Shown here in pieces: positions 1 to 15,731 of a stretch of DNA of 18,280 nucleotides (positions are counted from its first letter, which is position 1; each line of letters begins with the position of its first letter). The position numbers were made by a program, and so were the translations under genes. Source of the stretch: a virus (Duplodnaviria; Heunggongvirae; Uroviricota; Caudoviricetes); the IMG/VR virus record IMGVR_UViG_3300010261_000182. One strand, given 5' to 3'. The notes beneath the pieces were generated by a model. It saw only the letters and a program-made list of their open reading frames with translations, ran no database searches and was not told where the DNA came from.

Positions 1-348
1 TTACGAATTACTGCGGCGCTGTTGCTTTTCCGCATGTACGCGTTTCACAATCTTATAAATCCATTGCAGCGTCAGATTATATTTCTTCGCTAATTCGGCG
101 TAGTTGCGCCCATCGCACTCGCTATAGATTTGGTAGTCACGCTCCGATGCTCGTCCGGAGATCCCCTTAGGGAAATAAATGCTTTGTCCGCCCCAGTTAC
201 GCATCATTCGGTCGGCAATGGCAAAGCCCACATTTTCTGCCGATGAACTGTCGAGATTGATGCTTTCAATCAGAACTTGCGATGCATGAAAAGCCAAGTC
301 GTTAATGATCTCCGGTGTCCGGGCCATCTCTTTTGATTTTCGTATCAT
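1..348 (-). CDS. Mor/C-family transcriptional activator (Mu-like middle/late gene activator)
   Basis: 115-aa ORF with TAA stop at 1-3 and GGAG 7 nt upstream of the ATG. The central GGQSIYFPKG and the C-terminal helix-turn-helix-like segment YAELAKKYNLTLQWIYKIVKR resemble the Mor/C activator family. Family assignment is from memory, not searched. Confidence 0.7.
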   Translation of the reverse strand: MIRKSKEMARTPEIINDLAFHASQVLIESINLDSSSAENVGFAIADRMMRNWGGQSIYFPKGISGRASERDYQIYSECDGRNYAELAKKYNLTLQWIYKIVKRVHAEKQQRRSNS

Positions 349-569
349 TTTTCATCTCCATATATCTTGCATCCTGAATAAGACCCGATGCGTGTAAAAC
401 CACGGATATACGCTAAGCAGTTGTCATTACTGCTACTCAATACATTCAACAAACAAATAAACAATTAACAAAAATATAAATTTTTAATATTAATGAACGC
501 CATAAATTCATGAAATAGATATATTGTTTGCGTTATGTTTCTTGTCAACAGGTGTATCATTTTACACGA

Positions 570-589
570 TACTGTATACACATACAGTA
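570..589. promoter_or_regulatory. Candidate LexA (SOS) operator
   Basis: TACTGTATACACATACAGTA is a perfect 8-bp-arm palindrome that fits CTGT-N8-ACAG with TA flanks. It differs from the idealized TACTGTATATATATACAGTA only at two central positions. It lies between the divergent activator and lysis genes. Confidence 0.6.
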
Positions 590-885
590 TTATTTTTACT
601 TGTAGTGTAAAAAGATCGTTTCCCTCACAGTCGCTGACTTTCTTAAACAAACTTTAAAAATCAAATAACTATCGAATATTCCTACGATCCACCATCATCT
701 TTCCCCTGCATAATGATGCACTTGTTCGCCAGGTCACCTTTTGCTCTTTTATTGACGGGTGGATTTATTAGCGGGCATGTTCATTTATAGAGAATCTATT
801 TTTTAAACTTATTTATTAAAGCTTTTTTCATTCTTCACTGGCGGGTTCTGACGACACTAAACGCTCATTTATCAGGAGATATCGT

Positions 886-1173
886 ATGAAAAAAATCACA
901 TTTCCCCGGCTTTCCGGCTGGCTGGTCGCTTCCGTCGCGCTGTTTGTCGTGATCGGCTGGACCTCTTCCGCACAGATCCCGGTCGTCATTTATAAACTAA
1001 GCCTGGTTTCGCTTTCCGCGGTGCTGGGATACTGGCTCGATCGCAGTTTGTTCCCCTGGGCACGGCCTGACTCTTTTTGCCCCTGGAAGGAACCGCGTTG
1101 CTGCGCGGCGGCAATGATTCGCCGGGCTATCATCGTTGCTGCCGTCTGCCTTTCCGTCGCGTTAGGGCTATAG
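886..1173 (+). CDS. Small membrane protein, possible holin
   Basis: 95-aa ORF with AGGAG 8 nt upstream of the ATG. Three hydrophobic segments (WLVASVALFVVIGW, LSLVSLSAVLGYWL, AIIVAAVCLSVALGL). It sits immediately upstream of the lytic transglycosylase gene. It lacks the charged C-terminal tail typical of holins, so the call is positional. Confidence 0.4.
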   Translation: MKKITFPRLSGWLVASVALFVVIGWTSSAQIPVVIYKLSLVSLSAVLGYWLDRSLFPWARPDSFCPWKEPRCCAAAMIRRAIIVAAVCLSVALGL

Positions 1174-1175
1174 TG

Positions 1176-1781
1176 ATGTGGCTGAAATATATCGCGTCTA
1201 TGATTATTTTCGTTCTTTTCCCACTCAACGCCTCTGAACCGCCGAGAGCCTCTCTGGCATGGCGAAACGAACTAATTCGTACCGCTCGAGAAGTCTGGGG
1301 ACTGAATGCCCCAGTGGCCGACTTTGCCGGGCAATTACACCAGGAGTCCGCCTGGCAGCCAATGGTACGTTCCCCCGTTGGCGCACAAGGTATGGCGCAA
1401 TTCATGCCTGCTACAGCGACATGGGTAAGCCAGTTGTATCCGCAGTTGCGTGAAAACAAACCGTATAACCCAACCTGGGCGATTCGCGCGCTGGTGCAAT
1501 ATGACCAGCATTTGTGGAAAAACATCTCTGCGAAAAATGATTGTCAGCGTATGGCGTTTACCCTAAGCGCCTATAACGGCGGTCAGGGATGGGTTAATCG
1601 GGATAAAAAACTGGCCGCATCCAAAGGGTTAGATGCCACCATCTGGTTTGGTCATGTTGAGCACGTCAACGCCGGGCGTAGCGCCGCAAACTGGCGAGAA
1701 AATCGTCACTATCCGAAGATGATCCTCTATCAACATGCCGCCCGCTACCTACTCTGGGGGCAGGCAAGCTGTCTTCATTAA
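1176..1781 (+). CDS. Lytic transglycosylase (SLT domain) endolysin with signal-peptide-like N-terminus
   Basis: Family-1 lytic transglycosylase motifs are present: LHQESAWQP (catalytic Glu-Ser), GMAQFMPATA and AYNGG. The N-terminus MWLKYIASMIIFVLFPLNA/SEPP has an n-h-c signal-peptide layout. The start is ATG 1176 or GTG 1173; the track ORF from 1077 is a TTG-initiated extension overlapping the upstream gene. Confidence 0.75.
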   Translation: MWLKYIASMIIFVLFPLNASEPPRASLAWRNELIRTAREVWGLNAPVADFAGQLHQESAWQPMVRSPVGAQGMAQFMPATATWVSQLYPQLRENKPYNPTWAIRALVQYDQHLWKNISAKNDCQRMAFTLSAYNGGQGWVNRDKKLAASKGLDATIWFGHVEHVNAGRSAANWRENRHYPKMILYQHAARYLLWGQASCLH

Positions 1782-1793
1782 TCAGAGGGGCCG

Positions 1794-2108
1794 ATGAAAC
1801 TCAGTATCGATTTTTGGGAAGTGATCTCCCTTATGCTTTCCTTCGTTGGATTAATGTTTGCTGCCGGAAAATTGCTGTTAGCGCAAATTGAAAAAAGACT
1901 TAATGAGCGTTTTGAATCTCTGGAAAACGCGCGCCGGGAATCAGAAACAAGTTGGTCGAAACTGGAAAGAGAGTTTCTTGAATTTCGTGCCGAGCTTCCG
2001 CTGCATTATGTCCGCAGAGAAGATTATCTTCGTGGGCAAGCAGTATTAGAAGCAAAGCTGGATGCCTTATATAGCAAAATCGAGCTATTACAACGTGGCA
2101 GTTATTAA
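1794..2108 (+). CDS. Lysis-associated membrane protein (Rz/i-spanin-like or holin-like)
   Basis: 104-aa ORF with GAGGGG SD. One N-terminal transmembrane segment (VISLMLSFVGLMFAAGKLLL) is followed by a charged, helical, coiled-coil-like region. It is the last gene of the lysis cassette before a terminator. No embedded lipoprotein (o-spanin) ORF was recognised. Confidence 0.35.
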   Translation: MKLSIDFWEVISLMLSFVGLMFAAGKLLLAQIEKRLNERFESLENARRESETSWSKLEREFLEFRAELPLHYVRREDYLRGQAVLEAKLDALYSKIELLQRGSY

Positions 2109-2114
2109 ATACAT

Positions 2115-2146
2115 CCCCACCTTTACGTAAGTGTGGGGGTTTTTTA
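2115..2146 (+). terminator. Rho-independent terminator after the lysis cassette
   Basis: Stem CCCCAC (2115-2120) pairs with GTGGGG (2133-2138). The loop contains the palindrome TTACGTAA. A T-run follows at 2140-2146. Confidence 0.7.
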
Positions 2147-2254
2147 TAGCCATTCAATTTTTTCTCTAAATCACATTAAAAGATTCTTCACCTTCACTGC
2201 TTCAGAATATATCTCAACGATAACGAAGTGAGCGGTAATTAAGGTACAGCCTAT

Positions 2255-2710
2255 ATGGAAATTTTATCTGTAATGAATTGTGTCGTGACAAGATTACGTG
2301 AGCACAACCCCGAAATGGACGTATTTATTTCATCTACGGATGCCCAGAAATATATTCCACAGACACAACAAGTTGCGGTGATTGTTAATTATAGCGGTTC
2401 TGTCTTTACCACGCCCGAAAGCAGTGATGCCATCGTGCAACAGCAAATACTTCGCTTAACCGCCACCGTTATTGTTGGCAAAAATTGTGACGCGTTAAAC
2501 GCACTTGATCACATACGCAGCGCATTGGGTGGCCTTCAGCTTCCTGATTGCGATCGTCTGCTTTGGCTTGAAAAAGAAATTAATACAGGTGAGAGCGGCG
2601 GTTTCTGCCGCTACATCCTAGAAATGGCGACCAGCTCGCTGTTTATCGCGAAACGGGAAAGCACGGACCTTACCCTGCTTACGGAAGTTAATTACGAGGA
2701 AACTGAATGA
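2255..2710 (+). CDS. Conserved Mu-like structural protein (gp37-like; tail completion/terminator candidate)
   Basis: 151-aa ORF, first gene after the terminator, directly upstream of the sheath gene and coupled to the next ORF by an ATGA overlap. The function is inferred from position in Mu-type late clusters and is weakly supported. Confidence 0.4.
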   Translation: MEILSVMNCVVTRLREHNPEMDVFISSTDAQKYIPQTQQVAVIVNYSGSVFTTPESSDAIVQQQILRLTATVIVGKNCDALNALDHIRSALGGLQLPDCDRLLWLEKEINTGESGGFCRYILEMATSSLFIAKRESTDLTLLTEVNYEETE

Positions 2711-2904
2711 AATACATCTACAACGGCCCGGCAAGCGGCGTCACCCTTGCCGACGGACAAGAAATCTTATTGTGGCCGAACAGTGAAATTGATCTGCCAG
2801 AAGACAACGAGTGGGTCATGACCATGATTGCCCGCAATCATCTGACTCCTGTCATCACTCAGGAAGAACAAAATAACGGAGAGGAAATTGTACATGGCAG
2901 CTAA
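2707..2904 (+). CDS. Small Mu gp38-like protein of unknown function
   Basis: 65-aa ORF coupled by ATGA overlap to the upstream gene and overlapping the sheath start. The call is positional. Confidence 0.35.
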   Translation: MKYIYNGPASGVTLADGQEILLWPNSEIDLPEDNEWVMTMIARNHLTPVITQEEQNNGEEIVHGS

Positions 2905-4318
2905 TTATCTGCACGGTGTAGAAACCATTGAAATTGAAACCGGCCCGCGTCCGGTTAAAGCGGTAAAATCCGCCGTCATCGCTTTAATCGGTACGGCCCC
3001 CTGTGGTCCGGTAAATAAACCAACATTATGCCTTTCTGAAAGCGATGCTGCGCAGTTTGGTTCGACTCAGACTAACTTTACGATCCCACAGGCACTGAAG
3101 GCGATTTATGACCACGGTGCCGGTACGGTGGTGGTGATTAACGTGCTGGATCCGGCAAAACATGGCTCCAACATCAGCAATGAGAGTATCACTTTTGATG
3201 CTAACAACCAGGCGAAACTCACTCACCGCAATGTGCGTAACGTGGTTCTAAAGCCCTCTTCATCAAATTCATCAACCTATAACACCGCAGCATTTAGCGT
3301 AGATGAACAAACAGGCATAATTACCCGTACAGGAGCCGACATTCCTCCTGGTGCGAAAGTTTGCGCCTATTATTCCTGGTGCGACCCTACAAAGGTCACC
3401 GCAGCCGATATTATCGGTGCCGTTAATACCGCAGGCGATCGCACGGGGATGAAACTGCTACAGGACACCTATAACCTGTATGGTTTCTACGCCAAAATCC
3501 TGCTTGCTCCCGTGTTCTGTACGCAAAAATCAGTAACTACAGAGCTGATTGCACAAGCGGAAAAACTTGGTGCGATTACCTACATTGATGCCCCGATTGG
3601 GACGACATTCCAGCAGGTATTGGCAGGACGCGGTTCGCAAGGGGCTATCAACTTCAACACCAGCTCTGATCGTGCGCGTTTATGTTACCCACACGTCAAA
3701 GTTTACGATGGCATCACTAACCAAGAAGTTCTCGAACCGCTCTCTTCGCGCGCTGCCGGGCTACGTGCCAAAGTAGACCTCGAAAAAGGTTTCTGGTGGA
3801 GCAACTCAAACCAAGAAATTCAGGGTATTACCGGTATTGAACGTTCGCTTTCCGCAATGATTGATGATCCACAAAGCGAAGTGAATCAGCTAAACGAAAA
3901 CGGCATTACCACTATTTTCAATAGTTACGGCTCTGGTCTGCGCTTGTGGGGCAACCGCACTGCAGCGTGGCCTACCGTGACCCATATGCGTAACTTTGAA
4001 AACGTCCGCCGGACAGGCGATGTAATTAATGAGTCAATCCGTTATTTCAGTCAGCAGTATATTGATATGCCGATTAATCAGGCGCTGATTGATGCCCTGA
4101 CCGAATCGGTAAATACCTGGGGCCGTAAGCTGATTGCCGACGGCGCACTGCTTGGCTTTGAATGCTGGTACGATCCGGCGCGAAATTCACCGACTGAACT
4201 CAGCGCCGGGCATTTATTGCTTAGCTATAAATTCACCCCGCCGCCGCCGCTGGAACGTCTGACGTTTGAAACTGAAATTACTTCTGAATATTTAGTCTCT
4301 CTGGAGAGCAATAGCTAA
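2894..4318 (+). CDS. Contractile tail sheath protein
   Basis: About 474 aa from ATG 2894, with GGAGAGG about 9 nt upstream; the track start at 2888 is TTG. Size and N-terminus (MAANYLHGVETIEIETGPRP) are typical of Mu gpL / P2 FI-class sheath proteins. It is followed by the tube gene with a TAATG overlap. Confidence 0.8.
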   Translation: MAANYLHGVETIEIETGPRPVKAVKSAVIALIGTAPCGPVNKPTLCLSESDAAQFGSTQTNFTIPQALKAIYDHGAGTVVVINVLDPAKHGSNISNESITFDANNQAKLTHRNVRNVVLKPSSSNSSTYNTAAFSVDEQTGIITRTGADIPPGAKVCAYYSWCDPTKVTAADIIGAVNTAGDRTGMKLLQDTYNLYGFYAKILLAPVFCTQKSVTTELIAQAEKLGAITYIDAPIGTTFQQVLAGRGSQGAINFNTSSDRARLCYPHVKVYDGITNQEVLEPLSSRAAGLRAKVDLEKGFWWSNSNQEIQGITGIERSLSAMIDDPQSEVNQLNENGITTIFNSYGSGLRLWGNRTAAWPTVTHMRNFENVRRTGDVINESIRYFSQQYIDMPINQALIDALTESVNTWGRKLIADGALLGFECWYDPARNSPTELSAGHLLLSYKFTPPPPLERLTFETEITSEYLVSLESNS

Positions 4319-4842
4319 TGGCTGGAAAAATTCAAATTAACCGTATTACCAACGCCAATATTTATCTCGATGGTAATAACCTTTTAGGTCGTGCAACCGA
4401 AATTAAATTGCCGGATGTCAGTTTAATTATGCAGGAGCATAAAGCACTGGGCATGGTCGGCAAAATCGAACTCCCGGCAGGTTTCGATAAACTGGAAGGG
4501 GAAATTAAATGGAACTCCTTTTATCAGGACGTCATGCGTAAAACGGCAAACCCGTGGCAGGCGGTAGCATTACAGTGCCGCTCCAGTATTGATTGCTATA
4601 ACTCCCAGGGGAAAGCGAATCAATTAGCGTTAGTGACACATTTAACCGTGATGTTTAAAAAGAATCCACTGGGCACATTTAAACAGAATGAAAACCCGGA
4701 ATTCAGCAGCGCCTTTGGCTGTACTTATATTAAACAAGTGGTCGATGGTGAAACGCTGCTTGAACTTGATTATATGGCGAATATTTTTCGGGTTAACGGC
4801 GTGGATCAATTAAGTACCTATCGCAATAACATCGGTGGCTAA
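4318..4842 (+). CDS. Tail tube protein
   Basis: 174-aa ORF immediately after the sheath gene with TAATG coupling. Size and position match Mu gpM / P2 FII-class tube proteins. Confidence 0.8.
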   Translation: MAGKIQINRITNANIYLDGNNLLGRATEIKLPDVSLIMQEHKALGMVGKIELPAGFDKLEGEIKWNSFYQDVMRKTANPWQAVALQCRSSIDCYNSQGKANQLALVTHLTVMFKKNPLGTFKQNENPEFSSAFGCTYIKQVVDGETLLELDYMANIFRVNGVDQLSTYRNNIGG

Positions 4843-4846
4843 TTTA

Positions 4847-4866
4847 TTCGGGGCTACGGCCCCGAA
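4847..4866 (+). other. Stable intercistronic stem-loop (8-bp GC-rich stem, 4-nt loop)
   Basis: TTCGGGGC-TACG-GCCCCGAA lies directly after the tube stop codon. No T-run follows, so it is not a canonical intrinsic terminator. Confidence 0.55.
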
Positions 4867-4892
4867 CTTCGCAAAATAAATAAGGATACAAA

Positions 4893-5210
4893 ATGAAAGA
4901 GCATTATATCTTACAGTTCCCGTTTACTTCAGCGGCGGGAGACGTAATTAACACTCTGCAATTACGTCGCCTGAAAGTAAAAGATATGCGCAACGCGCGC
5001 CGGATCAGCGAAAAACCTGAAGAGTGGGATGAACCGCTAATGGCAGCAATGACCGGACTGGTGCCAGAAGATTTAGCTGAAATGGATTTGCTGGATTACC
5101 AGGCATTGCAGAAACGATTTCAATCCATGCTTAGCGTGGCTACAGAATCCGCCACTGTTATGGCAAGCGATGGCGTTACTGGCGAGATGGTTTCGCTTTC
5201 CGCCCAGTGA
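4893..5210 (+). CDS. Tail assembly chaperone (lambda G / P2 E analogue)
   Basis: 105-aa acidic ORF lying between the tube and tape-measure genes, the conserved position of the frameshift chaperone. AAGGA SD. An overlapping +1-frame ORF (5053-5298) continues past its stop. Confidence 0.6.
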   Translation: MKEHYILQFPFTSAAGDVINTLQLRRLKVKDMRNARRISEKPEEWDEPLMAAMTGLVPEDLAEMDLLDYQALQKRFQSMLSVATESATVMASDGVTGEMVSLSAQ

Positions 5211-5399
5211 GATAGACGCCCTTACCGTCGATGACTTTAGCAACTGGCTGGATGAAGCCAGCGCCCAAATAAAAATCGAATATGACTCGCAGACCTGATG
5301 TCTGCGAGTTTCCCAAGCCCGTCAGGTTTATTTCTTCCCTGCCCCTTTTTTTAGAAAAATAACCAGCGGGCCATTATCAATATTTAAAGAGAAACAATT

Positions 5400-7775
5400 T
5401 TGGCCAACGATATTATTACCCAGCTTCAGGCGCGTAATGAGACGTTGACGCAGGCAATAGCCCGTTACGGCTCACTCAACGCCAGAACATTGTTAACTCT
5501 CTCTACTCAGCAGGCGACAGTTATCAAACTAACGCAGCAGCTTGCCGATTCCGCTCTCCGCCTGGAGGAAAATAGCCGCAGCCGCGCTAATCTGATGGAG
5601 AAAACCCAAACATTTGCCGGGCAATTTAGCAAAGTATTCAATGTTGAAGCCCCCGACTGGAAGTTGCCGTATGAGTTTCAGGACAACATGGTCAATATGG
5701 CGACCAAAGGTGGGATGAATGCTACAACCCGCGAGACGCTCAGCCTTAATCTGCGCGACTGGAGCATGGATTTTAACCAGCAGCAGACCACCTTACAGAA
5801 CGCAGCCCAAACGCTGATCGAAGGCAATTTGTCGTCGATACAGGATCTCAACCGTTATATGCCGGAGATCGCCAAAGCTGCCACCGCCACGCGCGAAAGT
5901 GCTGAAACATGGGCGAATGCCGCGCTCGCAACCCATGATCGACTGAATATTGCCCCGGAAAATTTCCACGCCGCGCAAAACATGATGTACGGCATTAGCA
6001 AAAGCGGTGGGCCTGCCATTGCTGAACAAACGCAGTGGATAGAGAAATTTGCAGGTAAAACCGGCGCTCAGGGTCTGGAAGGTATGGCTGAACTGACCGC
6101 CACCATGCAGATCGCCATGAAAAACGGGGCCAGCGCCAGTGCGGCGGCGGAGAATTTCGACCACTTTCTGCAAACCACCTTTTCGAAAAAAACCGATAGC
6201 TGGTTCGCCAGCCAGGGCGTCGATCTGCAAGGCTCTCTGCTTGAACATCAGCAAAACGGTATGGGTGTTAGCGAAGCCATGACTCATATCGTACAAATGC
6301 AGCTTGAGAAGATGAATCCGGCGATCCTCGACACCTTCAAACGCACTATGCAGATTGAAGATTTATCTGCTCGCAGCAATGCGCTGCAATCGATGGTAAC
6401 GCAATTTAATCTGGGCGAAATGTTCGGCGATGCGCAAACGGTGGAATTCCTGGCACCTATGCTGGCGAATATGGAGGAATATCGCCAGTTAAAAGCCTCT
6501 GCCATGCAAGCCACCAGCAAGAATCTGATTAACGCTGACTTTTCTGCGCAAATGGCCTCGCCCATTGAACAGACTAAAGCGTTACAGCTGGCATTAAATG
6601 ATTTATGGCTCAGCATTGGTTTGCAGCTTATGCCGGCGATTGGCGAGCTGGCACAAAGCCTTACGCCGGTTATTCGCCAGTTCAGCGCCTGGCTACGCGA
6701 ACATCCGGCGCTGGTGCAAAACATTGCGAAAATCGTCGGGGCGGTTTGGCTGTTTAACGGCGCGCTGAATGTTTTAAAGCTGGGCGCGAACCTCATCACC
6801 TCGCCGTTTATTCGTCTGGTCGATATCTTCCTGAAAGTCAAGGCAAGTCTGGCGCTCACAGGCGGGGCAAATAAGATGCTATCAGCGGTTAAGTCATTGG
6901 GTGGCGGCGCAAAATGGCTAATGCAACTGCTTGGTCGTGGCCTGATTGGCGCACTGAAACAGGTAGGTCAGACCGTCTTCTGGTTGGGTAGGGTTTTATT
7001 GATGAATCCCATTGGTCTGGTCATCACTGCGATTGCGGGCGCTGCTTATCTGATTTGTCGCAACTGGGAGCCTATCTCCAGGTTCTTTTCGACCATCTGG
7101 CAACGTATCACCACAGCCTTTGACGGCGGCATTGCAGGAATTTGTCGGTTGATTCTCGACTGGTCACCGCTGGAGTTGTTCTATAGCGCCTTTTCCAGTG
7201 TGATGAATTGGTTTGGTGTCGAGATGCCTGCAAGTTTTAGCGAGTTCGGCAGCAATCTTCTGGGCAGTCTGGTTGACGGCATAATGAATGCCTTCCCCGC
7301 TCTGAAAGGCATTATTGATCAGGTAAAAAACGCCATCCCAGACTGGCTAAAAACCACGATGGGTATTAGTACAGAAGGATCGGCTACAGCTATTACAAGC
7401 ACGACTAATACCGCATCCGTCTCCCCCGCGACCGTTGTTCCAGGCGTTGCCGGTGCGATTTTAACGCCGCCGGTGGGCAAACAACTCGCGCCATCCGGCA
7501 AAACGGCTACGCCGTCATCGGCGCCAGCGGCAAAAAATACAGCCGCCAAACCCGTATCTGCCTCTTTACCTGGTAAATCCGTAACCAAACCGGCGACGCT
7601 ACCCTCCCGTTCCTCAGGAAAAGTCCAGGTAAATTTTTCGCCACAGATTACCGTGCAGGGAAACGGACAAAACACCACTAAAGACATTCAGAACGTGTTG
7701 ACGATGAGTAAACGCGAACTGGAAAGAATGATTAACGACGTAATGGCGCAACAACAGCGCCGGGGGTATGCCTGA
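5400..7775 (+). CDS. Tail tape measure protein
   Basis: 791-aa ORF with a helical N-terminal region, internal hydrophobic segments and a Ser/Thr/Pro/Ala-rich low-complexity C-terminal region. It sits between the chaperone and baseplate genes. The apparent start is TTG 5400 with AAAGAG upstream, so the start is uncertain. Confidence 0.8.
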   Translation: MANDIITQLQARNETLTQAIARYGSLNARTLLTLSTQQATVIKLTQQLADSALRLEENSRSRANLMEKTQTFAGQFSKVFNVEAPDWKLPYEFQDNMVNMATKGGMNATTRETLSLNLRDWSMDFNQQQTTLQNAAQTLIEGNLSSIQDLNRYMPEIAKAATATRESAETWANAALATHDRLNIAPENFHAAQNMMYGISKSGGPAIAEQTQWIEKFAGKTGAQGLEGMAELTATMQIAMKNGASASAAAENFDHFLQTTFSKKTDSWFASQGVDLQGSLLEHQQNGMGVSEAMTHIVQMQLEKMNPAILDTFKRTMQIEDLSARSNALQSMVTQFNLGEMFGDAQTVEFLAPMLANMEEYRQLKASAMQATSKNLINADFSAQMASPIEQTKALQLALNDLWLSIGLQLMPAIGELAQSLTPVIRQFSAWLREHPALVQNIAKIVGAVWLFNGALNVLKLGANLITSPFIRLVDIFLKVKASLALTGGANKMLSAVKSLGGGAKWLMQLLGRGLIGALKQVGQTVFWLGRVLLMNPIGLVITAIAGAAYLICRNWEPISRFFSTIWQRITTAFDGGIAGICRLILDWSPLELFYSAFSSVMNWFGVEMPASFSEFGSNLLGSLVDGIMNAFPALKGIIDQVKNAIPDWLKTTMGISTEGSATAITSTTNTASVSPATVVPGVAGAILTPPVGKQLAPSGKTATPSSAPAAKNTAAKPVSASLPGKSVTKPATLPSRSSGKVQVNFSPQITVQGNGQNTTKDIQNVLTMSKRELERMINDVMAQQQRRGYA

Positions 7776-8728
7776 TGTATGCCGTTTTAGGAGAGATTGA
7801 ATTTAAGGTTGTCACATTCTGGGACGGCTTTAAAAGCACAATGGGCGTGGATTACGCCACACATGCCCGTATAGAAGGCAAACCCGGCGTGCAGTTTATT
7901 GGCGATAAGCTGGATATGCTGGCGCTGGAATTTTCCCTGCACAGCCAGTTTTGCCAGCCCACAACAGAGCTGAACCGACTGCGTGAAGCCATGCTTGCTC
8001 ACAAGGCGATGGCACTGGTATTTGGCAATGGCGATTATCGCGGCTGGTTTGTGATTACGGAGCTAACCGCCACCCACCAGCACACCGATCCCTGGGGCAA
8101 TGTGATTGCCCAAAACGGAACGATGTCGCTCCAGGAGTACACCGGCGATCCTAAAAATCCACTTTTACCTCCGGCGATTACCACCCAGGAGCCCAACATC
8201 GAGGAAAAGGCGAGCGATTTTCCCGACAAGGTGGAGTCCTGGTTTGATCAGATATTAAACGCCATTGAAGAAGGTATGCGTAAGGCCAAAGAGATGCTGG
8301 ATGAACTGACACAATCCATTGAAGATATTAAAAAAACGGTGGCAAAAGTGAAAGCAATGATTAAAGAGGCCAAAGCGTTAAAAGAAAAGTGTGAAAAGAT
8401 AATTACGTCATTGAAAAAGACAATCGACGCCATCGAAACCCTGTTTAAACAGCCAATGGATCTGCAAACGCTGGCAGGCCTACCAAAAGCGTTGTCGGCG
8501 CAGATTAAAGCTTTACTGGGTAACATGCCAGGTATCCGGGACTGCGCCAATGACGCCAGTACGCTGGTTGACCATGCTCAGGCGCTTTTCGACGACATTA
8601 CCAGCGACATCGCCGAAGCGACGTTCGATAAAGCCACGTCGTTGGTTGAGCAGGCACGTACAACGGTACAACAAACCACTCCCGCAGTGAGCCAGCTTGC
8701 TGCCGTAACCATTACCAGGAGCTGGTAA
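7775..8728 (+). CDS. Tail protein of the P2 gpU / Mu N (DNA circularization protein) family
   Basis: 317-aa ORF coupled by TGATG overlap to the tape-measure gene. The N-terminal ~130 aa (MYAVLGEIEFKV...DYRGWFVITEL) follows the gpU/N pattern as remembered. The C-terminal part is a K/E-rich helical extension. Confidence 0.55.
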   Translation: MYAVLGEIEFKVVTFWDGFKSTMGVDYATHARIEGKPGVQFIGDKLDMLALEFSLHSQFCQPTTELNRLREAMLAHKAMALVFGNGDYRGWFVITELTATHQHTDPWGNVIAQNGTMSLQEYTGDPKNPLLPPAITTQEPNIEEKASDFPDKVESWFDQILNAIEEGMRKAKEMLDELTQSIEDIKKTVAKVKAMIKEAKALKEKCEKIITSLKKTIDAIETLFKQPMDLQTLAGLPKALSAQIKALLGNMPGIRDCANDASTLVDHAQALFDDITSDIAEATFDKATSLVEQARTTVQQTTPAVSQLAAVTITRSW

Positions 8729-8937
8729 TGCGATACCTTGAACATATCACCACCGATGGCGAACGCTGGGATAACCTGGCATGGCATTACTACGGTGATG
8801 CGCTGGCTTATGAACGCATAATCGCCGCCAATCCACATGTAGCCATTTACCCGGTACTGCCTTCCGGTATTCAGCTCATTATTCCGGTCATTTCCGTTAA
8901 TAAAACCTTATCGGAGATCCCACCATGGCTGAGATAA
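8728..8937 (+). CDS. Tail protein X-like (LysM-like) small protein
   Basis: 69-aa ORF with TAATG coupling. GERWDNLAWHYYGD...IIAANPHVA...VLPSGIQLIIP matches the remembered P2 gpX pattern (GDTLD..YYG...ANP...LP.G..V.LP). Confidence 0.6.
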   Translation: MRYLEHITTDGERWDNLAWHYYGDALAYERIIAANPHVAIYPVLPSGIQLIIPVISVNKTLSEIPPWLR

Positions 8938-9965
8938 GCGTAACTGGTGGCGTCTTTGCCACACTCACGCCCATTTTTACCCTCTGGTATGGGCATAAAG
9001 ATATCACTTATGACATCACACCCTATGTCACCAGCATCAGTTACCACGACAGCATCAAAAACGAGTCGGATACCATCGCAATTACACTGGATGACACAGA
9101 TGGACGCTGGATAAAAGAGTGGTATCCCGGCAAAGGCGATACGCTGGCGCTGCATATGGGTTATCAGGGAGAGAAGCTGCTCGATTGTGGTCAGTATATT
9201 ATTGATAAAATTGATATTTCAGCGCCACCTTCCACGGTAAATATTGATGGCATCGCCACTTCCGTCAATCAGGCGCTGCGCACCCGTAACAGCCAGGGCT
9301 TTGAAGAAACGACGCTTTCGGCGATCGCCAGCCGTATTGCCCAAACGCACGGTCTGAAACTGGTGGGCAAAATCGAGTCGCTCACCATCGACCGGGTAAC
9401 GCAGTATGGTGAAACCGATGTCGGATTTCTCAAACGTATGGCCAGTGAATATGGTTATGCCGTAAAAGTGACGACAAAAGAGCTGATTTTTTCACATTTA
9501 CCCACGCTGCGCTGCCTGGCACCGGTAAAAAAGATCGAGCGCAAAGAGGTTTCTCATTTTACCTTCAAAGACACCATTAACCGGATCTACAAGAACGCCA
9601 CCGTACAGCATCAAAATAGTAAGAAAAAAGAACTGGTTATCTACACTCACGACAGCCAGCAAAAACCATCTGTCCGTGGAGTCGGCACTAGTGCCGACAC
9701 GCTAAAACTGAACAGTCGGGCGACGGACGTTGGCGCAGCACAGGCAAAGGCTAACGCTGCACTCGACAGCCACAACGAATATCAGCAAACCGGAACGCTC
9801 ACAATGATGGGCTGCCCGGAACTGACGGCGGGCAATAAAATCGAGCTAACCGATTTTGGCGTGCTTTCCGGTCAATGGCTAATTGATAAATCTACTCACA
9901 GTTTTGTGCGCAGCGGCTATACCACTGAAATCGACGTGTCGCGCGGGCCAGCGACCAGCCAGTAA
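8925..9965 (+). CDS. Baseplate hub protein, P2 gpD / Mu P-like (late control D family)
   Basis: 346-aa ORF. The segment ETDVGFLKRMASEYGYAVKVTTKELIFSHL resembles the conserved gpD-family core. It sits upstream of the spike gene. Confidence 0.65.
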   Translation: MAEISVTGGVFATLTPIFTLWYGHKDITYDITPYVTSISYHDSIKNESDTIAITLDDTDGRWIKEWYPGKGDTLALHMGYQGEKLLDCGQYIIDKIDISAPPSTVNIDGIATSVNQALRTRNSQGFEETTLSAIASRIAQTHGLKLVGKIESLTIDRVTQYGETDVGFLKRMASEYGYAVKVTTKELIFSHLPTLRCLAPVKKIERKEVSHFTFKDTINRIYKNATVQHQNSKKKELVIYTHDSQQKPSVRGVGTSADTLKLNSRATDVGAAQAKANAALDSHNEYQQTGTLTMMGCPELTAGNKIELTDFGVLSGQWLIDKSTHSFVRSGYTTEIDVSRGPATSQ

Positions 9966-9974
9966 GGAGGAAAT

Positions 9975-10634
9975 ATGAAAGGAGTAACCCGGCAAACGGG
10001 GATTATCAGCGATATTGACGAAACCAGCGTTCGGGTGCGAGTCACGCTCCCAGAGTGTGACAATCTGAAGAGCAACTGGCTTGCGGTACTTCAACGCAAT
10101 TCCCAGGACAATAAAGACTACTGGCTACCGGATATGGGCGAGCAAGTGGAAGTTCTGCTGGACAATAACGGTGAAGATGGCGTGGTGCTGGGCGCAGTTT
10201 ATTCTACGGTTGACACCGCGCCTGTGGCCTCGCGCGATAAACGTTACGTCCAGTTTTCTGATGGCGCAGCGTTTGAATATGACCGCAGCACGCACCAGCT
10301 GACGATTAACGGCGGTATCGAGAAAATCGTGATTGAGGTTATCGACCGTACCAGCCTGACATCGCCCAACGTTGAGATTAAAGCCCAACAGGTCATCGTG
10401 ACTTCCGATACTGTCGATGTTAAAGCGGCAGCAGTGACGGTAGATGCGCCCATGAGCACCTTTACTGGCAACGTCACGGTAATGAAAAAACTCACCTGGC
10501 TTGGCGGGATGGCAGGAAGTGGAGGCATCGGTAACGCCGCCACAATAACCGGCAATGTCAACGTGATCGGCAACGTTCAGGCCAGCGGCGCATTGCAGGA
10601 CAGTGGTGGCAACTCCAACCACCACTCACACTGA
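9975..10634 (+). CDS. Baseplate central spike, gpV-like
   Basis: 219-aa ORF with strong AAGGAGG SD. The N-terminal OB-like segment (NWLAVLQRN...YWLPDMGEQVEVLLDNNGEDGVVLGAVYS) matches the gpV pattern. The C-terminus is Gly/Asn/Val-rich and repetitive (GNVNVIGNVQASG) and ends in NHHSH. Confidence 0.7.
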   Translation: MKGVTRQTGIISDIDETSVRVRVTLPECDNLKSNWLAVLQRNSQDNKDYWLPDMGEQVEVLLDNNGEDGVVLGAVYSTVDTAPVASRDKRYVQFSDGAAFEYDRSTHQLTINGGIEKIVIEVIDRTSLTSPNVEIKAQQVIVTSDTVDVKAAAVTVDAPMSTFTGNVTVMKKLTWLGGMAGSGGIGNAATITGNVNVIGNVQASGALQDSGGNSNHHSH

Positions 10635-10639
10635 CGTTT

Positions 10640-10669
10640 AACCCGCCTGATGGCGGGTTTTCTCTTTTT
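10640..10669 (+). terminator. Rho-independent terminator or attenuator inside the baseplate region
   Basis: AACCCGCC (10640-10647), loop TGAT, GGCGGGTT (10652-10659), followed by TTCTCTTTTT. It starts 6 nt after the spike stop codon. Confidence 0.6.
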
Positions 10670-10732
10670 AATCAATCAGTTTTCTAAATCGCTTTAATAT
10701 CACCACAGCCCGTTCAGGGCGAAAATACCCTC

Positions 10733-11092
10733 ATGAACACAAAAACACGACCCTCAACGCTGCACTGGCAACCGGCCTTGCTGCGGCCTGAAGAATACGT
10801 CTGCGGACTGGATGATATTCACCAGGCAATACACATCATTCTGCGTACACCGCGCGGCAGTGATCCCCACAGACCGCTGTTTGGCAGCAACTTGTGGCAC
10901 TACATCGATTACCCCATCGAGCGGGCTATCCCGCATGTGGTACGGGAGTCGGTGGAAGCCATCCGCCAGTGGGAACCGCGCTGTCGGTTGCTGAAGGTGA
11001 CACCAGTAATCGACGGCGAACATCTGACGTTACGTGTGCAATGGCGCGCCGCTGACGGCGTTATCAACTCAACGGAGGTGTTATGGCGATAG
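10733..11092 (+). CDS. Baseplate protein, gpW / T4 gp25-like
   Basis: 119-aa ORF. IHQAIHIILRTPRGSDPHRPLFGSNLWHYIDYP matches the GPW/gp25 family pattern as remembered. Confidence 0.7.
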   Translation: MNTKTRPSTLHWQPALLRPEEYVCGLDDIHQAIHIILRTPRGSDPHRPLFGSNLWHYIDYPIERAIPHVVRESVEAIRQWEPRCRLLKVTPVIDGEHLTLRVQWRAADGVINSTEVLWR

Positions 11093-12198
11093 CCGAACCC
11101 AATTTTATTGACCGCGATCCTGCGCAAATTACCAGTGAGATGATTGCGCAATACGAAGATGCCAGTGGTAAAAAACTCTATCCGGCACAGGCTGAACGGT
11201 TGCTCATCGACCTGTTTGCCTATCGTGAAAACCTTGTACGCATCGCCATTCAGGAAGCGGCGAAACAGAACCTGGTCGCGTATTCCCGCGCGCCAATGCT
11301 GGATTATTTAGGGGAGTTGGTGGGCGTTCACCGTTTGCCTGCGCAGCCGGCAAAAACGACGTTGCAGTTTTCGGTCGTCAGCGCGTATACCAGCAATATC
11401 CTGATTCCCCAGGGGACGCGGGCCAGTGCCTCTGATAGCGTGATGTTCGCCACCGATGAAGATGTTCTGCTTCCGGCCAGGAGTTTGCATATCGCCGTTC
11501 CTGCCACCAGCCTCGCAGCAGGTGAACAGGGTAACGGCTGGCAGCCTGCACAAATTAGCGCACTGGTCGACAGGATTGGTCATTATGACATCAACGTAAC
11601 CAACCTGACTGCGTCAACGAGCGGCTGCGGTGAAGAGAGCGATGACGCATTGCGCCAGCGTATCCAACTGGCACCAGAAAGCTTTAGTAATGCGGGCAGC
11701 TATGGTGCCTACCGCTTTCATACGCTTTCTGTTAGCCAGTCGATTATTGACGTTGCAGTACTGGGGCCGGACGAGGGATTGCCAGAAGGCTGCGTGGAGA
11801 TCTACCCGCTAACCCTGAATGGTCTACCCGGCACGGAGTTGCTGGCGCAGATTGAACAAGAAGTCAGCAAGGAGAAAAAACGACCGCTGACCGACAAAGT
11901 GAGTGCGAAATGCGCTCTTCGAGTGCCGTATGAGATCCGTGCGCAGCTAACGCTGTTTACCACCGCCGATCAGGAGACAACGCTGGCTGCGGCGCGTAAA
12001 GCGATTAGCCTCTGGACGCAACAGCGGCAGAAACATCTGGGGCAGGACATTGTGCCAAACCAGATAATCAAAGTGTTACAGGTCGATGGCGTCTATGACG
12101 TTGCGCTGAATATGCCTACAAAACGTATTTTGCAGGCGCATGAGTGGGCGGAATGCACCGCAATAGACGTCACGATTGCCGGAGTCAGCGATGGATAA
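11083..12198 (+). CDS. Baseplate wedge protein, gpJ-like
   Basis: 371-aa ORF with GGAGG SD, overlapping the end of the gpW-like gene. Position and size match baseplate J family proteins. Confidence 0.7.
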   Translation: MAIAEPNFIDRDPAQITSEMIAQYEDASGKKLYPAQAERLLIDLFAYRENLVRIAIQEAAKQNLVAYSRAPMLDYLGELVGVHRLPAQPAKTTLQFSVVSAYTSNILIPQGTRASASDSVMFATDEDVLLPARSLHIAVPATSLAAGEQGNGWQPAQISALVDRIGHYDINVTNLTASTSGCGEESDDALRQRIQLAPESFSNAGSYGAYRFHTLSVSQSIIDVAVLGPDEGLPEGCVEIYPLTLNGLPGTELLAQIEQEVSKEKKRPLTDKVSAKCALRVPYEIRAQLTLFTTADQETTLAAARKAISLWTQQRQKHLGQDIVPNQIIKVLQVDGVYDVALNMPTKRILQAHEWAECTAIDVTIAGVSDG

Positions 12199-12907
12199 AT
12201 TGCTGCCACCGCCGCCGCTTGCCAGCGATGAGCGTTTTTCGATTCTGGCAAACATCGCCGCCGAGCGTTTTGCCCAACTCGATCTGACGGCGTTGATGGT
12301 TTATCTGGTCGACCTGGTTGATGCTTCGGCATTACCAGCCCTTGCAGAACAATTTCACGTTCAGGGGCTGGAAGGTTGGTTATTTACCACCGATGAGCGG
12401 GAGAAACGCGAGTTAATTAAACAAGCCATTGAACTGCATAAATATAAAGGAACAATTTGGGCGGTGCGGCGGGTGCTGGAAATACTCTCCTTACCCGGAA
12501 CTATTTCAGAATGGTTTGAATATGGGGGAAGGGCTTACTTTTTTAAGGTTGATATTACACTAGAGGAAAAAGGATTAAATGAAGATGAATTCAATGCACT
12601 TATCACATTAATTCATGAATATAAAAATGTCCGATCAAAGCTGGAAAGCATTGTTATTTGGCTTATTAATCGAAGCCCAATACCAGTTATTGGCAGTGCC
12701 ATGCAAGGAGGGGAAGTCATTACAGTATTGCCTCCTGTTGCAGAAAGCCTCAGCCAGTCATCTGGAATATTTTTAGCGACAGGTTATTGTGTGGAGGAAT
12801 ATATTCAACTACTACCTTATCAACCCGTTCGACTAACACAATCCCAACCGATGAAGGTCGGCACAGGATACTGGAGCACCGAAATTATGTCTGTATATCC
12901 GGAGTAA
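12191..12907 (+). CDS. Baseplate/tail protein, P2 gpI-like
   Basis: About 238 aa from ATG 12191, with GGAG at 12181-12184; the track start at 12176 is TTG. The N-terminus [22 protein letters not shown] is typical of the gpI family. The C-terminal half is markedly AT-rich. Confidence 0.6.
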
Positions 12908-12909
12908 TA

Positions 12910-14550
12910 ATGGCAAGTGAATTTTTTACAATATTAACTGCTGCAGGCAAAGCCAAAATTGCCTCAGCACTGGCCGAGCAAAAACAGATCCGTCTGCAAA
13001 CTATGGTAGTTGGCGACGGTAATGGTAAATATATCGAACCGACAGAAAGTCAGACCAAAGTAGTCCATGAGGTCTGGCGTGGTCAGCTCAATACATTAAA
13101 AATTGCGCCAGATAATCCGGCCTGGGTTATCGCAGAAGCGATTATTCCCGAACAAGTCGGAGGCTGGTATGTACGCGAAGTTGGGTTACTGGATACCGAC
13201 GGCACGATGGTCGCTATTGGTAAATTCCCGGAAACCTATAAGCCACGATTACCTGCGGGGGCCAGTAAGCAAATCGTTATACGCGCGGTCATGGAAGTCA
13301 CCAATGCAGATGCGGTGACGCTTTTGATCGACCCTTCAGTCGTTGTGGCAACCAGGGAATATGTCGATGACGCGTTGAAAACACATCAGCAATCACGAAA
13401 TCATCCTGATGCGACGCTGACACAAAAAGGTTTTACGCAGCTGAGTAATGCGACTAATAGCGATGATGAAACCAAAGCGGCCACGCCAAAAGCGGTAAAA
13501 ACGGCATATGACCTGGCAAATAGCAAAGCTGCCACCAGTCATAATCATGCCTGGAATCAGATTACTGGTATCCCTGATGGTACACTGACGCAGAAAGGAG
13601 TCGTTAAGCTTAACAATACAACAAATAGCACCAGTACGACGGAAGCTGCAACACCAAGTGCGGTTAAGGCAGCGATGGATAAGGCTATTGCTGCGGCACC
13701 GTCCAGCCATACCCATGCCTGGGGGCAAATAACAGGTATCCCCGACGGTACGCTGACGCAAAAAGGGGTCGTGAAACTTAATAATGCGACCAACAGCACC
13801 AGTACGACGGAAGCTGCAACGCCGAACGCTGTTAAGGCAGCGATGGATAAGGCTATTGCTGCGGAAAGCTGTCCTGTAGGGATGCCTATTCCTTGGCCAT
13901 CTGATTCTATACCTTCAGGCTACGCTCTGATGACAGGTCAGACATTTAATAAAGCCTCCTATCCCAAACTGGCAATTGCATATCCATCTGGTGTTATTCC
14001 TGACATGCGCGGATGGATAATTAAAGGAAAACCATCCAGTGGGCGAGCTATATTATCTACTGAACTGGATGGAATTAAATCACATAACCATACGGGCAGT
14101 ATTTCGAGTACTGATTTAGGGACAAAGGCAACATCATCTTTTGATTTTGGACACAAAACGACATCTGCCTCTGATCTTGGTTCTAAGACAACATCGTCGT
14201 TCAATCACGGAAGTAAATCGTCGACCAGCACAGGGGGCCATTCACATCAAATAACATGTAAAGGTGATGCTGATTACGGTGGCAATGCACTAACCGCTGA
14301 TTCTATAGGTGACTCTCGTTATGACTACGTTAATACCGATACTGTAGGTGATCACTCTCATACTACAGCCATTGGTACCCATGCACATACTATCGCATTG
14401 GGTAGCCATACACATGAACTTTCAATTGGCACCCATTCGCATTCAATTGCCCTTGGTTCCCATAATCACTCCCTAACCATTAATAATACCGGCAACACCG
14501 AAAACACCGTCAAAAATATCGCATTCAACTATATTGTGAGGCTAGCATGA
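12910..14550 (+). CDS. Tail fiber protein
   Basis: 546 aa from ATG 12910, with GGAG at 12901-12904; the upstream in-frame extension in the track is rejected. It has a conserved gpH/S-type N-terminus ([24 protein letters not shown]...MVVGDGNG), internal 56-aa tandem repeats, and a C-terminal region of short periodic repeats with five HxH motifs. Confidence 0.85.
13408..13866 (+). repeat. In-frame tandem repeat, period 168 bp, about 2.7 copies, inside the tail fiber gene
   Basis: Protein units [12 protein letters not shown]... / [40 protein letters not shown] / [40 protein letters not shown]. Copies 2 and 3 are near-identical at nucleotide level. The antisense ORF 13557-13799 shows the same peptide at both ends. 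Confidence 0.85.
14349..14469 (+). repeat. 27-bp (9-aa) periodic repeat encoding five HxH motifs in the tail fiber tip
   Basis: [42 protein letters not shown]; the repeat is also visible at nucleotide level (ggtacccatgcacatactatcgcattg / ggtagccatacacatgaactttcaatt ...). Confidence 0.8.
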
Positions 14551-15254
14551 ATACTTTTACCTTTTCCGATGAAGCTCAAATACTAACTGTATATAATTTT
14601 TCACAAGACTCCCAAGAATATATCGGTGAGTCTGATGCATACATTGCACCTAATACAGGCTTGCCAAATTATTGCACATTAATTTCACCTCCCGAAAAGG
14701 TTCCTGGTTTTACTCCAGTGTGGGAGAATGAAACATGGAGATTTATTGAAGATCATCGAGGCCAAACTGTTTATAACAAAGTTGATGGTAGCCAGCTTAT
14801 TATTCAAGAATTGGGCCAATTACCTGAAAATGTAACAGTCATTTCCCCGACAGGTTCTTTTGAACGTTGGGATGGTGAAAAATGGCAACCATCTATAACC
14901 GATGCTAAAGAGGCGAAATACTCTGCAATCAAAAATCAACGCGATGCCATCACAACCGATTACATCATCATCAACAACCATCACTTCCACAGTGATACAA
15001 ATAGCCGTATCCAGCAGCTCTCACTCACAAAAATGGGAGCGGAGAAAAAAATTCCGCCAGGGTTAATGTGGAAAACTAAAAATAATGGTCTGATCGAGTT
15101 AACCAACGAAATCGCCGCCCAGTTTGAATCGGTCACCATGGATCACGATATGCGCTTGTTCGCAAACGCCCAGCACCATATCGCGGCGGTGGAAGCACTG
15201 GACGATATTCAGGCGGTGCTCGACTACGATTATTCAACAGGCTGGCAACCATGA
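14547..15254 (+). CDS. Putative tail fiber assembly chaperone
   Basis: 235-aa ORF coupled by ATGA overlap to the tail fiber gene, with GAGG SD. The call is positional. The 5' half is AT-rich like the fiber tip, consistent with a co-transferred fiber/chaperone unit. Confidence 0.5.
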
Positions 15255-15691
15255 GTAAAACCACTGTCTGGCTCGCTTGTTATAAGGGCCGAACAGAGCA
15301 CCGTGGTATTGCCCGACTGGCTGACTGGCTTACCCGTAAAATCACACGCGGCAGTTATTCCCACTGTGAATTAGCCGTTAAGCATGGTGAAAAGAGTTAC
15401 CTTTGTTACTCCGCATCACTGCGCGATCGCGGTGTACGCGGAAAAATAATGCCATTGCCAGCGGATAAGTGGGATATGCTGCCGCTCCAGGCCAGCCTTC
15501 AGGATGTGGAAACTTTTTTCCGTAAACATGATGGCAAAAAATATGACTGGCGCGGAGCATTAGGAATTATTATCGGTAATAAAGAACAGCGCGATCGCCT
15601 GTTTTGCAGTGAATTTTGTGCTGAATTTCTGCAACTGAAGGAAAGCTGGCGCTATTCTCCAAACCACTTGTACGCTTTAGTCAGCAGTTAG
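15251..15691 (+). CDS. Hypothetical protein, possible permuted papain-like (NlpC/P60-LRAT/YiiX-like) enzyme
   Basis: 146-aa ORF coupled by ATGA overlap to the fiber chaperone gene. YSHCELAV (His-containing) lies upstream of LFCSEFCAEF (Cys-Ser-Glu-Phe), which is reminiscent of permuted NlpC/P60 catalytic motifs. This is a weak, unverified resemblance. Confidence 0.35.
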   Translation: MSKTTVWLACYKGRTEHRGIARLADWLTRKITRGSYSHCELAVKHGEKSYLCYSASLRDRGVRGKIMPLPADKWDMLPLQASLQDVETFFRKHDGKKYDWRGALGIIIGNKEQRDRLFCSEFCAEFLQLKESWRYSPNHLYALVSS

Positions 15692-15710
15692 CAATACCAG
15701 CAATAAATCA

Positions 15711-15731
15711 CGCCGGGCTTTATGCCCGGCG
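15711..15731. terminator. Hairpin between convergent operons (candidate bidirectional terminator)
   Basis: CGCCGGGC-TTTAT-GCCCGGCG, an 8-bp GC stem. It overlaps the stop codon of the minus-strand nucleotidyltransferase gene and lies 20 nt after the + strand 146-aa gene. Flanking T-richness is only moderate. Confidence 0.5.

Follow-up and report, generated by a model that had tools for sequence, protein, structure and literature searches.

A conserved +1-frame extension of a tail assembly chaperone gene and a candidate UUU_C frameshift site in a contractile-tail cluster related to BcepMu-like phages

This cluster's gene for the tail assembly chaperone is overlapped by an open frame in the +1 (equivalently -2) register, which raises the question of whether ribosomes move into that frame to make a second, longer chaperone and, if so, where they do it. 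The frameshift in tail chaperone genes is among the most conserved recoding events of phages and, to our knowledge, almost all documented cases are -1 shifts. Such a frameshift yields two products that share their N-terminus and are made in a fixed ratio (PMC5009743; PMC2628397). A preliminary description of the window, i.e. of the whole stretch of 18,280 nucleotides analysed here, had proposed, between the tube and tape measure genes, a chaperone with two products, the second of which would come from the +1/-2 frame instead of the -1 frame that is usual. The gene positions fit this proposal, the +1-frame peptide very likely corresponds to the E'/GpE domain of phage P2, and the conservation of the +1/-2 geometry in homologues speaks for the proposed frame as well.

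The locus and its two reading frames

On the strand given, the genes are ordered sheath (2888-4318), tube (4318-4842; PF04985, E=3.7e-56, and TIGR01611, E=2.9e-65), chaperone (4893-5210) and tape measure (5400-7775; PF10145, E=1e-10, and TIGR01760, with a start identical to that in RefSeq), followed 3' of the tape measure by gpU, X, D, V, W, J, I, fibre and fibre-assembly genes. DNA of 98-100% identity adjoins lysC in 200 of 5426 complete E. coli genomes, and the closest phage relatives of the cluster are the BcepMu-like phages. Positions 1-15700 of the window carry genes for a Mor activator, a holin, an SLT transglycosylase, a membrane protein and Gp37 and then a full contractile tail from sheath to fibre assembly; among the genes of this part we found none for capsid, portal, terminase, transposase or integrase. 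The flanks behind the cluster, at 15720-17644, carry RlaP and SPFH genes of non-phage kind. The cluster looks like a headless tail cluster of the R-type tailocin kind, and its Pectobacterium homologues are found on contigs of like size (~16 kb). The gpU-like tail protein (7775-8728) has 317 aa, with the GpU domain at residues 6-123 and the remaining ~190 residues matching coiled-coil-type entries weakly, and is much longer than P2 gpU, the gene of which has 480 nt.

The chaperone gene encodes a frame-0 product of 105 aa that matches PF10109 (Phage_TAC_7) over residues 6-80 with E=3.9e-18 and 65.7 bits against a cut-off of 25. The family is described as 'E, 41 or 14', and the E. coli RefSeq label for the protein is 'phage tail assembly protein'. 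Constraint on the frame-0 protein is apparent over approximately residues 1-77 only. The +1 frame has no stop between 5077 and 5295 (73 codons) and overlaps the chaperone ORF over 5077-5210. It had been given as open from 5053 to the TGA at 5296-5298; the end stands, but the start has to be moved to 5077, because a TAG lies in that frame at 5074-5076. The peptide that had been read in the +1 frame beyond the chaperone stop, PSEIDALTVDDFSNWLDEASAQIKIEYDSQT, was reproduced by translation, and the -1 frame is indeed closed, by a TAG at 5213-5215. The extension itself had been counted as 30 codons from its position past the chaperone stop. Since we place the shift region at 5118-5121, the trans-frame part would instead comprise 58 codons plus the TGA, together 5122-5298, and encode NPCLAWLQNPPLLWQAMALLARWFRFPPSEIDALTVDDFSNWLDEASAQIKIEYDSQT.

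A perfect 7-bp hairpin, CGCAGAC-CTGAT-GTCTGCG at 5285-5305, spans the stop codon of the +1 frame and is followed by a gap of 100 nt with a T7 run and then by the TTG at which the tape measure gene starts. The hairpin was not called as a terminator by a simple scan, and a terminator and promoter scan of 4800-5450 returned nothing relevant.

The PF06528-like (Phage_P2_GpE) domain of the +1-frame peptide, encoded at 5170-5271, matches the Pfam model with 17.8-18.6 bits (E ~0.002; 0.0023), below the cut-off of 23 bits, while 10 of 20 aligned diverse relatives match PF06528, the best of them with E=4.8e-10. In an hhalign comparison, a profile of the 20 relatives matched P2 E' with a probability of 94% and E=1.2e-7. 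In some genomes a 42-aa ORF from the ATG at 5170 is listed by PGAP as a gene of its own, under the label 'GpE family phage tail protein'. On the strength of the family matches, the profile comparison and this label, we take the +1 peptide, which is very likely homologous to PF06528 and P2 E', to be the counterpart of P2 E' (hereafter E', and the chaperone E). Among PDB sequences, neither the E profile nor the E' profile found a meaningful match, and no NCBIfam model matches either E or E'.

Conservation of the +1 geometry and the change of frame under selection

Loci were gathered from species-representative genomes, from IMG/VR and from phages in GenBank. Relative to E (PF10109), E' occupies the +1 frame at ~95 loci in a first pass and in 110 unique sequences overall, a relation that holds down to ~35-40% identity of E and was found in all non-degenerate (intact) BcepMu-type homologues recovered. 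Among enterobacteria it is seen in Escherichia, Salmonella, Enterobacter, Superficieibacter, Phytobacter, Lelliottia, Pectobacterium and Samsonia; among phages in PhiKM, Burkholderia BcepMu and phiE255-like phages, Ralstonia YO107_2 and Pseudomonas Komp_PAO1_1 and Bise; and it also occurs in a Conchiformibius MAG (Neisseriaceae). The peptide is moreover conserved above the C-terminal quarter of the chaperone that it overlaps (80% versus 50% identity for Pectobacterium). Given this uniform relation among the non-degenerate homologues and the higher conservation of the peptide, the arrangement is, as judged from these alignments, far beyond chance expectation. The exceptions are two degenerate loci, L021 (Erwinia tracheiphila) and L174, in which the C-terminal half of E' is read in frame 0. 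For L021 a one-base deletion is visible in the G-run of CCGGGGGAG inside E'; L174 was classed by its frame only, not by inspection of its sequence, and in both cases the frame-0 read-through is probably due to decay or to a homopolymer sequencing error.

The E' peptides of the Conchiformibius MAG (L025) and of Pasteurella phage AFS-2018a (L202) are 57% identical over 46 aa, yet the former lies in the +1 frame, with ACC_TTT_CGC at the site, and the latter in the -1 frame, with the A-rich site CAAAAGGGAAAG. The recoding mode therefore appears to switch between fairly close relatives.

To find where the reading frame under selection changes, we considered variation by codon position in an alignment of 72 unique enterobacterial sequences. 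Through 5123, variation falls on the third positions of frame 0; from 5136 on, it falls on the first positions of frame 0, which are the third positions of the +1 frame. Mean entropy at frame-0 positions 1, 2 and 3 was 0.51, 0.33 and 1.07 over 4893-5111, in comparison to 0.76, 0.45 and 0.29 over 5136-5207 and 0.92, 0.46 and 0.38 over 5208-5295. This change in entropy by codon position places the passage of selection to the +1 frame between 5123 and 5136. In the same 72 sequences the Trp codon at 5137-5139 is invariant, and Trp is kept at this alignment column in at least 90% of 20 diverse members.

Stop codons in the homologues bound the shift independently. Frame-0 stops occur in homologues with intact E' as early as +27 nt past the codon for Phe-76, and +1-frame stops as late as -27 nt before it, the upstream bound being tighter, at -9 nt, in Ralstonia YO107_2 and Pseudomonas Komp_PAO1_1. 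Counted from the first T of the TTT codon, these limits (-27 to +27) would confine a positionally conserved shift site to 5092-5144. The stretch just past the proposed junction, 5122-5135, is poorly conserved in both frames, so that conservation by itself would leave some room for a shift a few codons downstream of UUU_C. Together with the invariance at the nucleotide level described below, the codon-position variation and the bounding stops form three independent lines that point to the same location.

A candidate +1 site and its rivals

Aligning the homologues for a conserved slippery sequence and a conserved extension, as had been proposed in the preliminary description, brought out both: the +1-frame extension is conserved, and an invariant TTT_C, a +1-type site rather than a canonical X_XXY_YYZ heptamer, lies in the overlap. 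Within 5092-5144, CGA_TTT_CA (5115-5122) is the sole element invariant among the 72 enterobacterial sequences, and the block AAA CGA TTT CA (5112-5122) around it is almost invariant, third positions included. TTT is found in 72/72 sequences and CGA in 71/72, with CGG in the remaining one, whereas other conserved codons in the same genes vary (Phe: TTC 53, TTT 13; Arg: CGC 32, CGT 40). Likewise, in the BcepMu group the homologous Phe codon is TTT at 14/14 loci, compared with 48 TTC and 12 TTT in neighbouring genes. All six +1 lineages in fact have TTT followed by C where the homologous Phe is encoded, even those from GC-rich hosts with a preference for TTC: CGA_TTT_CAR in enterobacteria, CGA_TTT_CTG in Ralstonia, YCC/GCC_TTT_CGY in the BcepMu group, ACC_TTT_CGC in Conchiformibius, GTG_TTT_CGG in Pseudomonas Komp_PAO1_1 and GCA_TTT_CAA in Pseudomonas Bise. 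The flanking CGA is conserved in the enterobacterial/Ralstonia clade only, and the cassette beyond TTT_C is thus not universal. Relatives with -1 geometry have no such Phe codon; in nearly that position, a few codons away, they carry a T6 or A-rich heptamer instead (GGTTTTTTG, GATTTTTTC or the A-rich CAAAAGGGAAAG).

TTT at 5118-5120 followed by the pyrimidine C5121 has what a UUU_Ynn site requires for +1 re-pairing of tRNA-Phe, and it is the sole codon in 5092-5144 whose tRNA can re-pair perfectly at +1. CGATTTC occurs in frame a single time (at 5115) among the 4217 tail-gene codons of the window. Across the tail genes (2255-15254), TTT is followed by C in 8 of 83 in-frame cases (A 32, G 26, T 17); taken as raw counts without a null model, these numbers are compatible with an avoidance of shift-prone UUU_C. 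A +1 slip at the neighbouring AAA_C, with a slow CGA in the A site, was considered as well and rejected, as the preceding codon varies (GAG, ACC, ACA, CAA) and BcepMu-type sites are without CGA.

We propose that most ribosomes would stay in frame 0 and terminate at the TGA at 5208, giving the 105-aa E protein, and that a minority would shift by +1 within the cassette CGA_UUU_CAA (5115-5123), at CGA_UUU_C (5115-5121), with the slip on UUU_C (5118-5121). CGA is decoded through inosine. The peptidyl-tRNA-Phe could move from UUU at 5118-5120, where it is held by a G.U wobble, to UUC at 5119-5121, where it would pair G:C; alternatively, Phe-tRNA could bind UUC out of frame while the weakly I.A-paired tRNA of CGA occupies the P site, a route that would also explain the invariant CGA of enterobacteria. 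Both routes would give one identical protein and are not distinguishable here. Translation would then proceed from AAT at 5122 to the TGA at 5296 and yield a 134-aa E+E' protein, made of residues 1-76 of E and a 58-aa tail with the GpE domain, with the junction peptide ...ALQKR followed by FNPCLAWLQNPPLLWQAMALLAR (KR-F-NPCLAW). If lambda G/GT and P2 E/E+E' are a guide, coating of the tape measure protein might fall to the N-terminal part that both products share, and recruitment of the tube protein to the rare C-terminal part; the ratio of E to E+E' would then be set by how often ribosomes slip.

How often the shift might occur is suggested by what surrounds the site. Between -30 and +110 nt, an alignment of 18 diverse homologues contained a trivial 3-bp helix only and no covariation that would indicate a conserved RNA structure, no conserved Shine-Dalgarno-like stimulator was seen by eye upstream of the site in the alignment, and the A site in frame 0 holds a codon (CAA/CAG or, in other lineages, CGC/CGG) that is not a stop and not obviously rare either. 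With no recognisable stimulator of these kinds, the efficiency could be low, and low frameshift efficiency is normal for tail chaperone pairs. That ribosomes shift at this site at all, that they do so by +1 rather than -2, how efficiently, and to what end in assembly, is what we infer from the sequence comparisons. In our view it is highly probable that E' is produced as an extension of E in the +1 frame; to the more specific reading, a +1 shift at UUU_C 5118-5121, we give a rough probability of 0.75.

Several other readings lead to the same peptide or dispense with the shift. E' might be a separate 42-aa protein translated from its own start, the ATG at 5170, without any frameshift; there is such an ATG, a stand-alone GpE CDS is annotated from it in a 98%-identical E. 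coli genome, and the record of BcepMu also starts gp42 at an internal ATG. Homologues do not keep the ATG at 5170, however: Pectobacterium has CAG at this place, L061 has ACG and others have GGG or GCG, and no Shine-Dalgarno-like sequence precedes it. Constraint on the +1 frame (the Trp at 5137-5139 and the motif P-x-x-L-W-Q-A) reaches 11-16 codons upstream of it, the P2 record gives the homologous E' as a -1 extension of E, and the invariance of TTT_C and of CGA at the nucleotide level would be left unexplained, all of which makes an independent start unlikely. A -2 frameshift, as in Mu gp41, would enter the same frame and add one residue, and we regard it as clearly less probable still, even though the Mu chaperone belongs to the same family, PF10109, and the Mu record calls a -2 shift with the same +1/-2 geometry verified, at CGG_GGG_CGA. 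Re-pairing at -2 takes a run of about five identical bases, and the longest run in 5092-5144 has three; none of the codons would pair after a step of -2 (UUU to GAU, CGA to AAC, CAA to UUC), and the G-runs of some homologues are not conserved.

It is also conceivable that nothing is recoded, and that the two frames reflect a decaying or mis-sequenced indel pseudogene or are rejoined by transcriptional slippage. Databases do hold indel-fused 134-aa proteins (P0023, P0026) and deletion fusions (P0002, P0008, P0048, P0060), and in L021, with its single-base deletion in a G-run, and L174, E' is partly in frame 0. Set against this are the recurrence of the same two-frame arrangement in the 110 unique sequences from several genera, complete phage genomes included, purifying selection in both parts, and, for transcriptional slippage, the lack of a homopolymer of sufficient length in 5092-5144; we would be surprised if this explanation held. 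The least probable of the readings considered is the +1 slip that had been suggested at CTT_TCC near the end of the chaperone gene. The sequence is present at 5196-5201, as had been noted, and it resembles the prfB slip codon, CUU_U (PMC10885494). As a slip site it fails on comparison: homologues with intact E' end frame 0 earlier, at the equivalents of 5145 (L055 group), 5160 (L061) and 5193 (L057/L058), the best-conserved part of E', ALLARWF, lies upstream of it, the +1 pattern of variation is already in place from 5136, ~60 nt earlier, and in other homologues CTT either reads GTT or is found past the stop of frame 0. The junction that such a slip would create, GEMVSLPPSEIDALT (...GEMVSL-PPSEIDALT), is thus one that we hardly expect to be found, and the +1 shift at UUU_C remains the reading that we prefer.

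Annotation, significance and comparison with known systems

The E+E' fusion is absent from every record examined, E' being either omitted or called as a free 42-aa gene. There is no slippage join of E and E' in the records of E. coli RefSeq, PhiKM, phiE255, vB_E427, KP12, Komp_PAO1_1 or Bise, and BcepMu is the one examined record with a slippage annotation, which makes a different join, gp42 to gp43. When the predicted 134-aa fusion was compared with 5.8 billion proteins, no entry with the RF/N junction was found, only indel and deletion fusions. Some of the public one-frame fusions of E and E' carry a small indel near the equivalent of 5148-5155 and others larger in-frame deletions, e.g. MDLL/ARWF; they may be sequencing errors or real mutants. 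In the open literature searched, which did not take in Xu et al. 2004, no description of this +1 site in BcepMu-like or P2-like chaperones was found.

The BcepMu record (AY539836) illustrates the consequences for annotation. Its gp41 is the counterpart of E, and gp42 is the E' ORF, in the +1 frame; over 3786-4291, however, the record (L003) lists gp42 as the equivalent of lambda G and has it run by 'ribosomal slippage' into gp43, a region that in the annotation of phiE255 encodes an opposite-strand membrane protein. Comparison with the locus described here suggests instead a +1 shift from gp41 to gp42 at UCC_TTT_CGC, and the gp42/gp43 annotation probably joins the wrong ORFs.

The evidence inclines us, with less assurance than for the site itself, to the view that a whole clade of P2/Mu-family chaperones may make E+E' by a minimal, stop-codon-independent +1 cassette, N_UUU_C, in the Burkholderia version UCC_UUU_CGC, the PA-X motif. 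Among its members we would, with similar reserve, count the BcepMu-like phages as well as the headless, carotovoricin-like tail clusters found in E. coli, Salmonella, Enterobacter and Pectobacterium. If true, one family with +1, -1 (in a relative with 57%-identical E') and -2 (Mu) shifts would form a natural series for studying the interconversion of recoding modes, and would show that the same two-product outcome is reached in all three ways within one protein family. It would also be suited to the study of what determines +1 efficiency, e.g. the invariant CGA before UUU in enterobacteria, and a conserved +1 case in tractable E. coli would provide a clean bacterial model for UUU_C, working without a stop codon, a Shine-Dalgarno-like element or an RNA structure. 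On a practical matter, both the BcepMu gp42/gp43 slippage model and the current PGAP annotations would be wrong for the +1 clade. Should the clusters act as tailocins, both products and their ratio would likely be needed for correct tail assembly.

The pair would belong to the class of tail chaperone frameshifts and, through homology, to the family of P2 E/E' and Mu gp41, with the recoding features of neither, the -1 shift on a T-run or the -2 shift on a G-run. Lambda gpG/gpGT, in which a -1 shift occurs at G_GGA_AAG, follows the same logic of overlapping ORFs directly upstream of the tape measure gene, without sequence similarity to the pair described here. P2 gpE/gpE+E' in the FETUD operon shares the gene position between tube (FII) and tape measure (T), the chaperone family (PF10109 for E), very likely that of the extension (PF06528 for E'), and a similar extension length; a (F/W)xxPPSE motif follows the shift after 24 residues here and ~28 in P2, as counted from the sequences. 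P2 shifts by -1 on G_GTT_TTT_TG, as marked in its record, whereas the candidate here is UUU_C, E' is encoded in the +1 frame, a stop closes the -1 frame (5213-5215) and there is no T-run. Mu gp41/Mu_56, with a -2 shift recorded as verified (PMID 15469818), shares the chaperone family and the +1/-2 frame relation; its G5 run permits -2 re-pairing, in contrast to the absence of any run above three in 5092-5144, and its extension has no obvious sequence similarity to E'.

Phage tail genes are known to use -1, -2 or +1 shifts, and a +1 shift in tail genes has been cited as 'very likely' for the haloarchaeal virus HSTV-2 (PMC5009743). Shift-prone +1 sites of the UUU_Ynn type include the argI error site of E. 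coli, Yersinia YopN-TyeA and PA-X of influenza A virus, the last with UCC_UUU_CGU (PMC5009743). These share with the site proposed here the tetranucleotide, the step of tRNA-Phe from UUU to UUC and the lack of an adjacent stop or an evident stimulatory structure. The UCC and CGN flanks of PA-X are absent here, where the cassette reads CGA_UUU_CAA, and the context, tail assembly, and the host differ as well. The BcepMu-like relatives, in contrast, carry UCC/GCC_TTT_CGC, and their UCC_TTT_CGC is nearly identical to the PA-X cassette.
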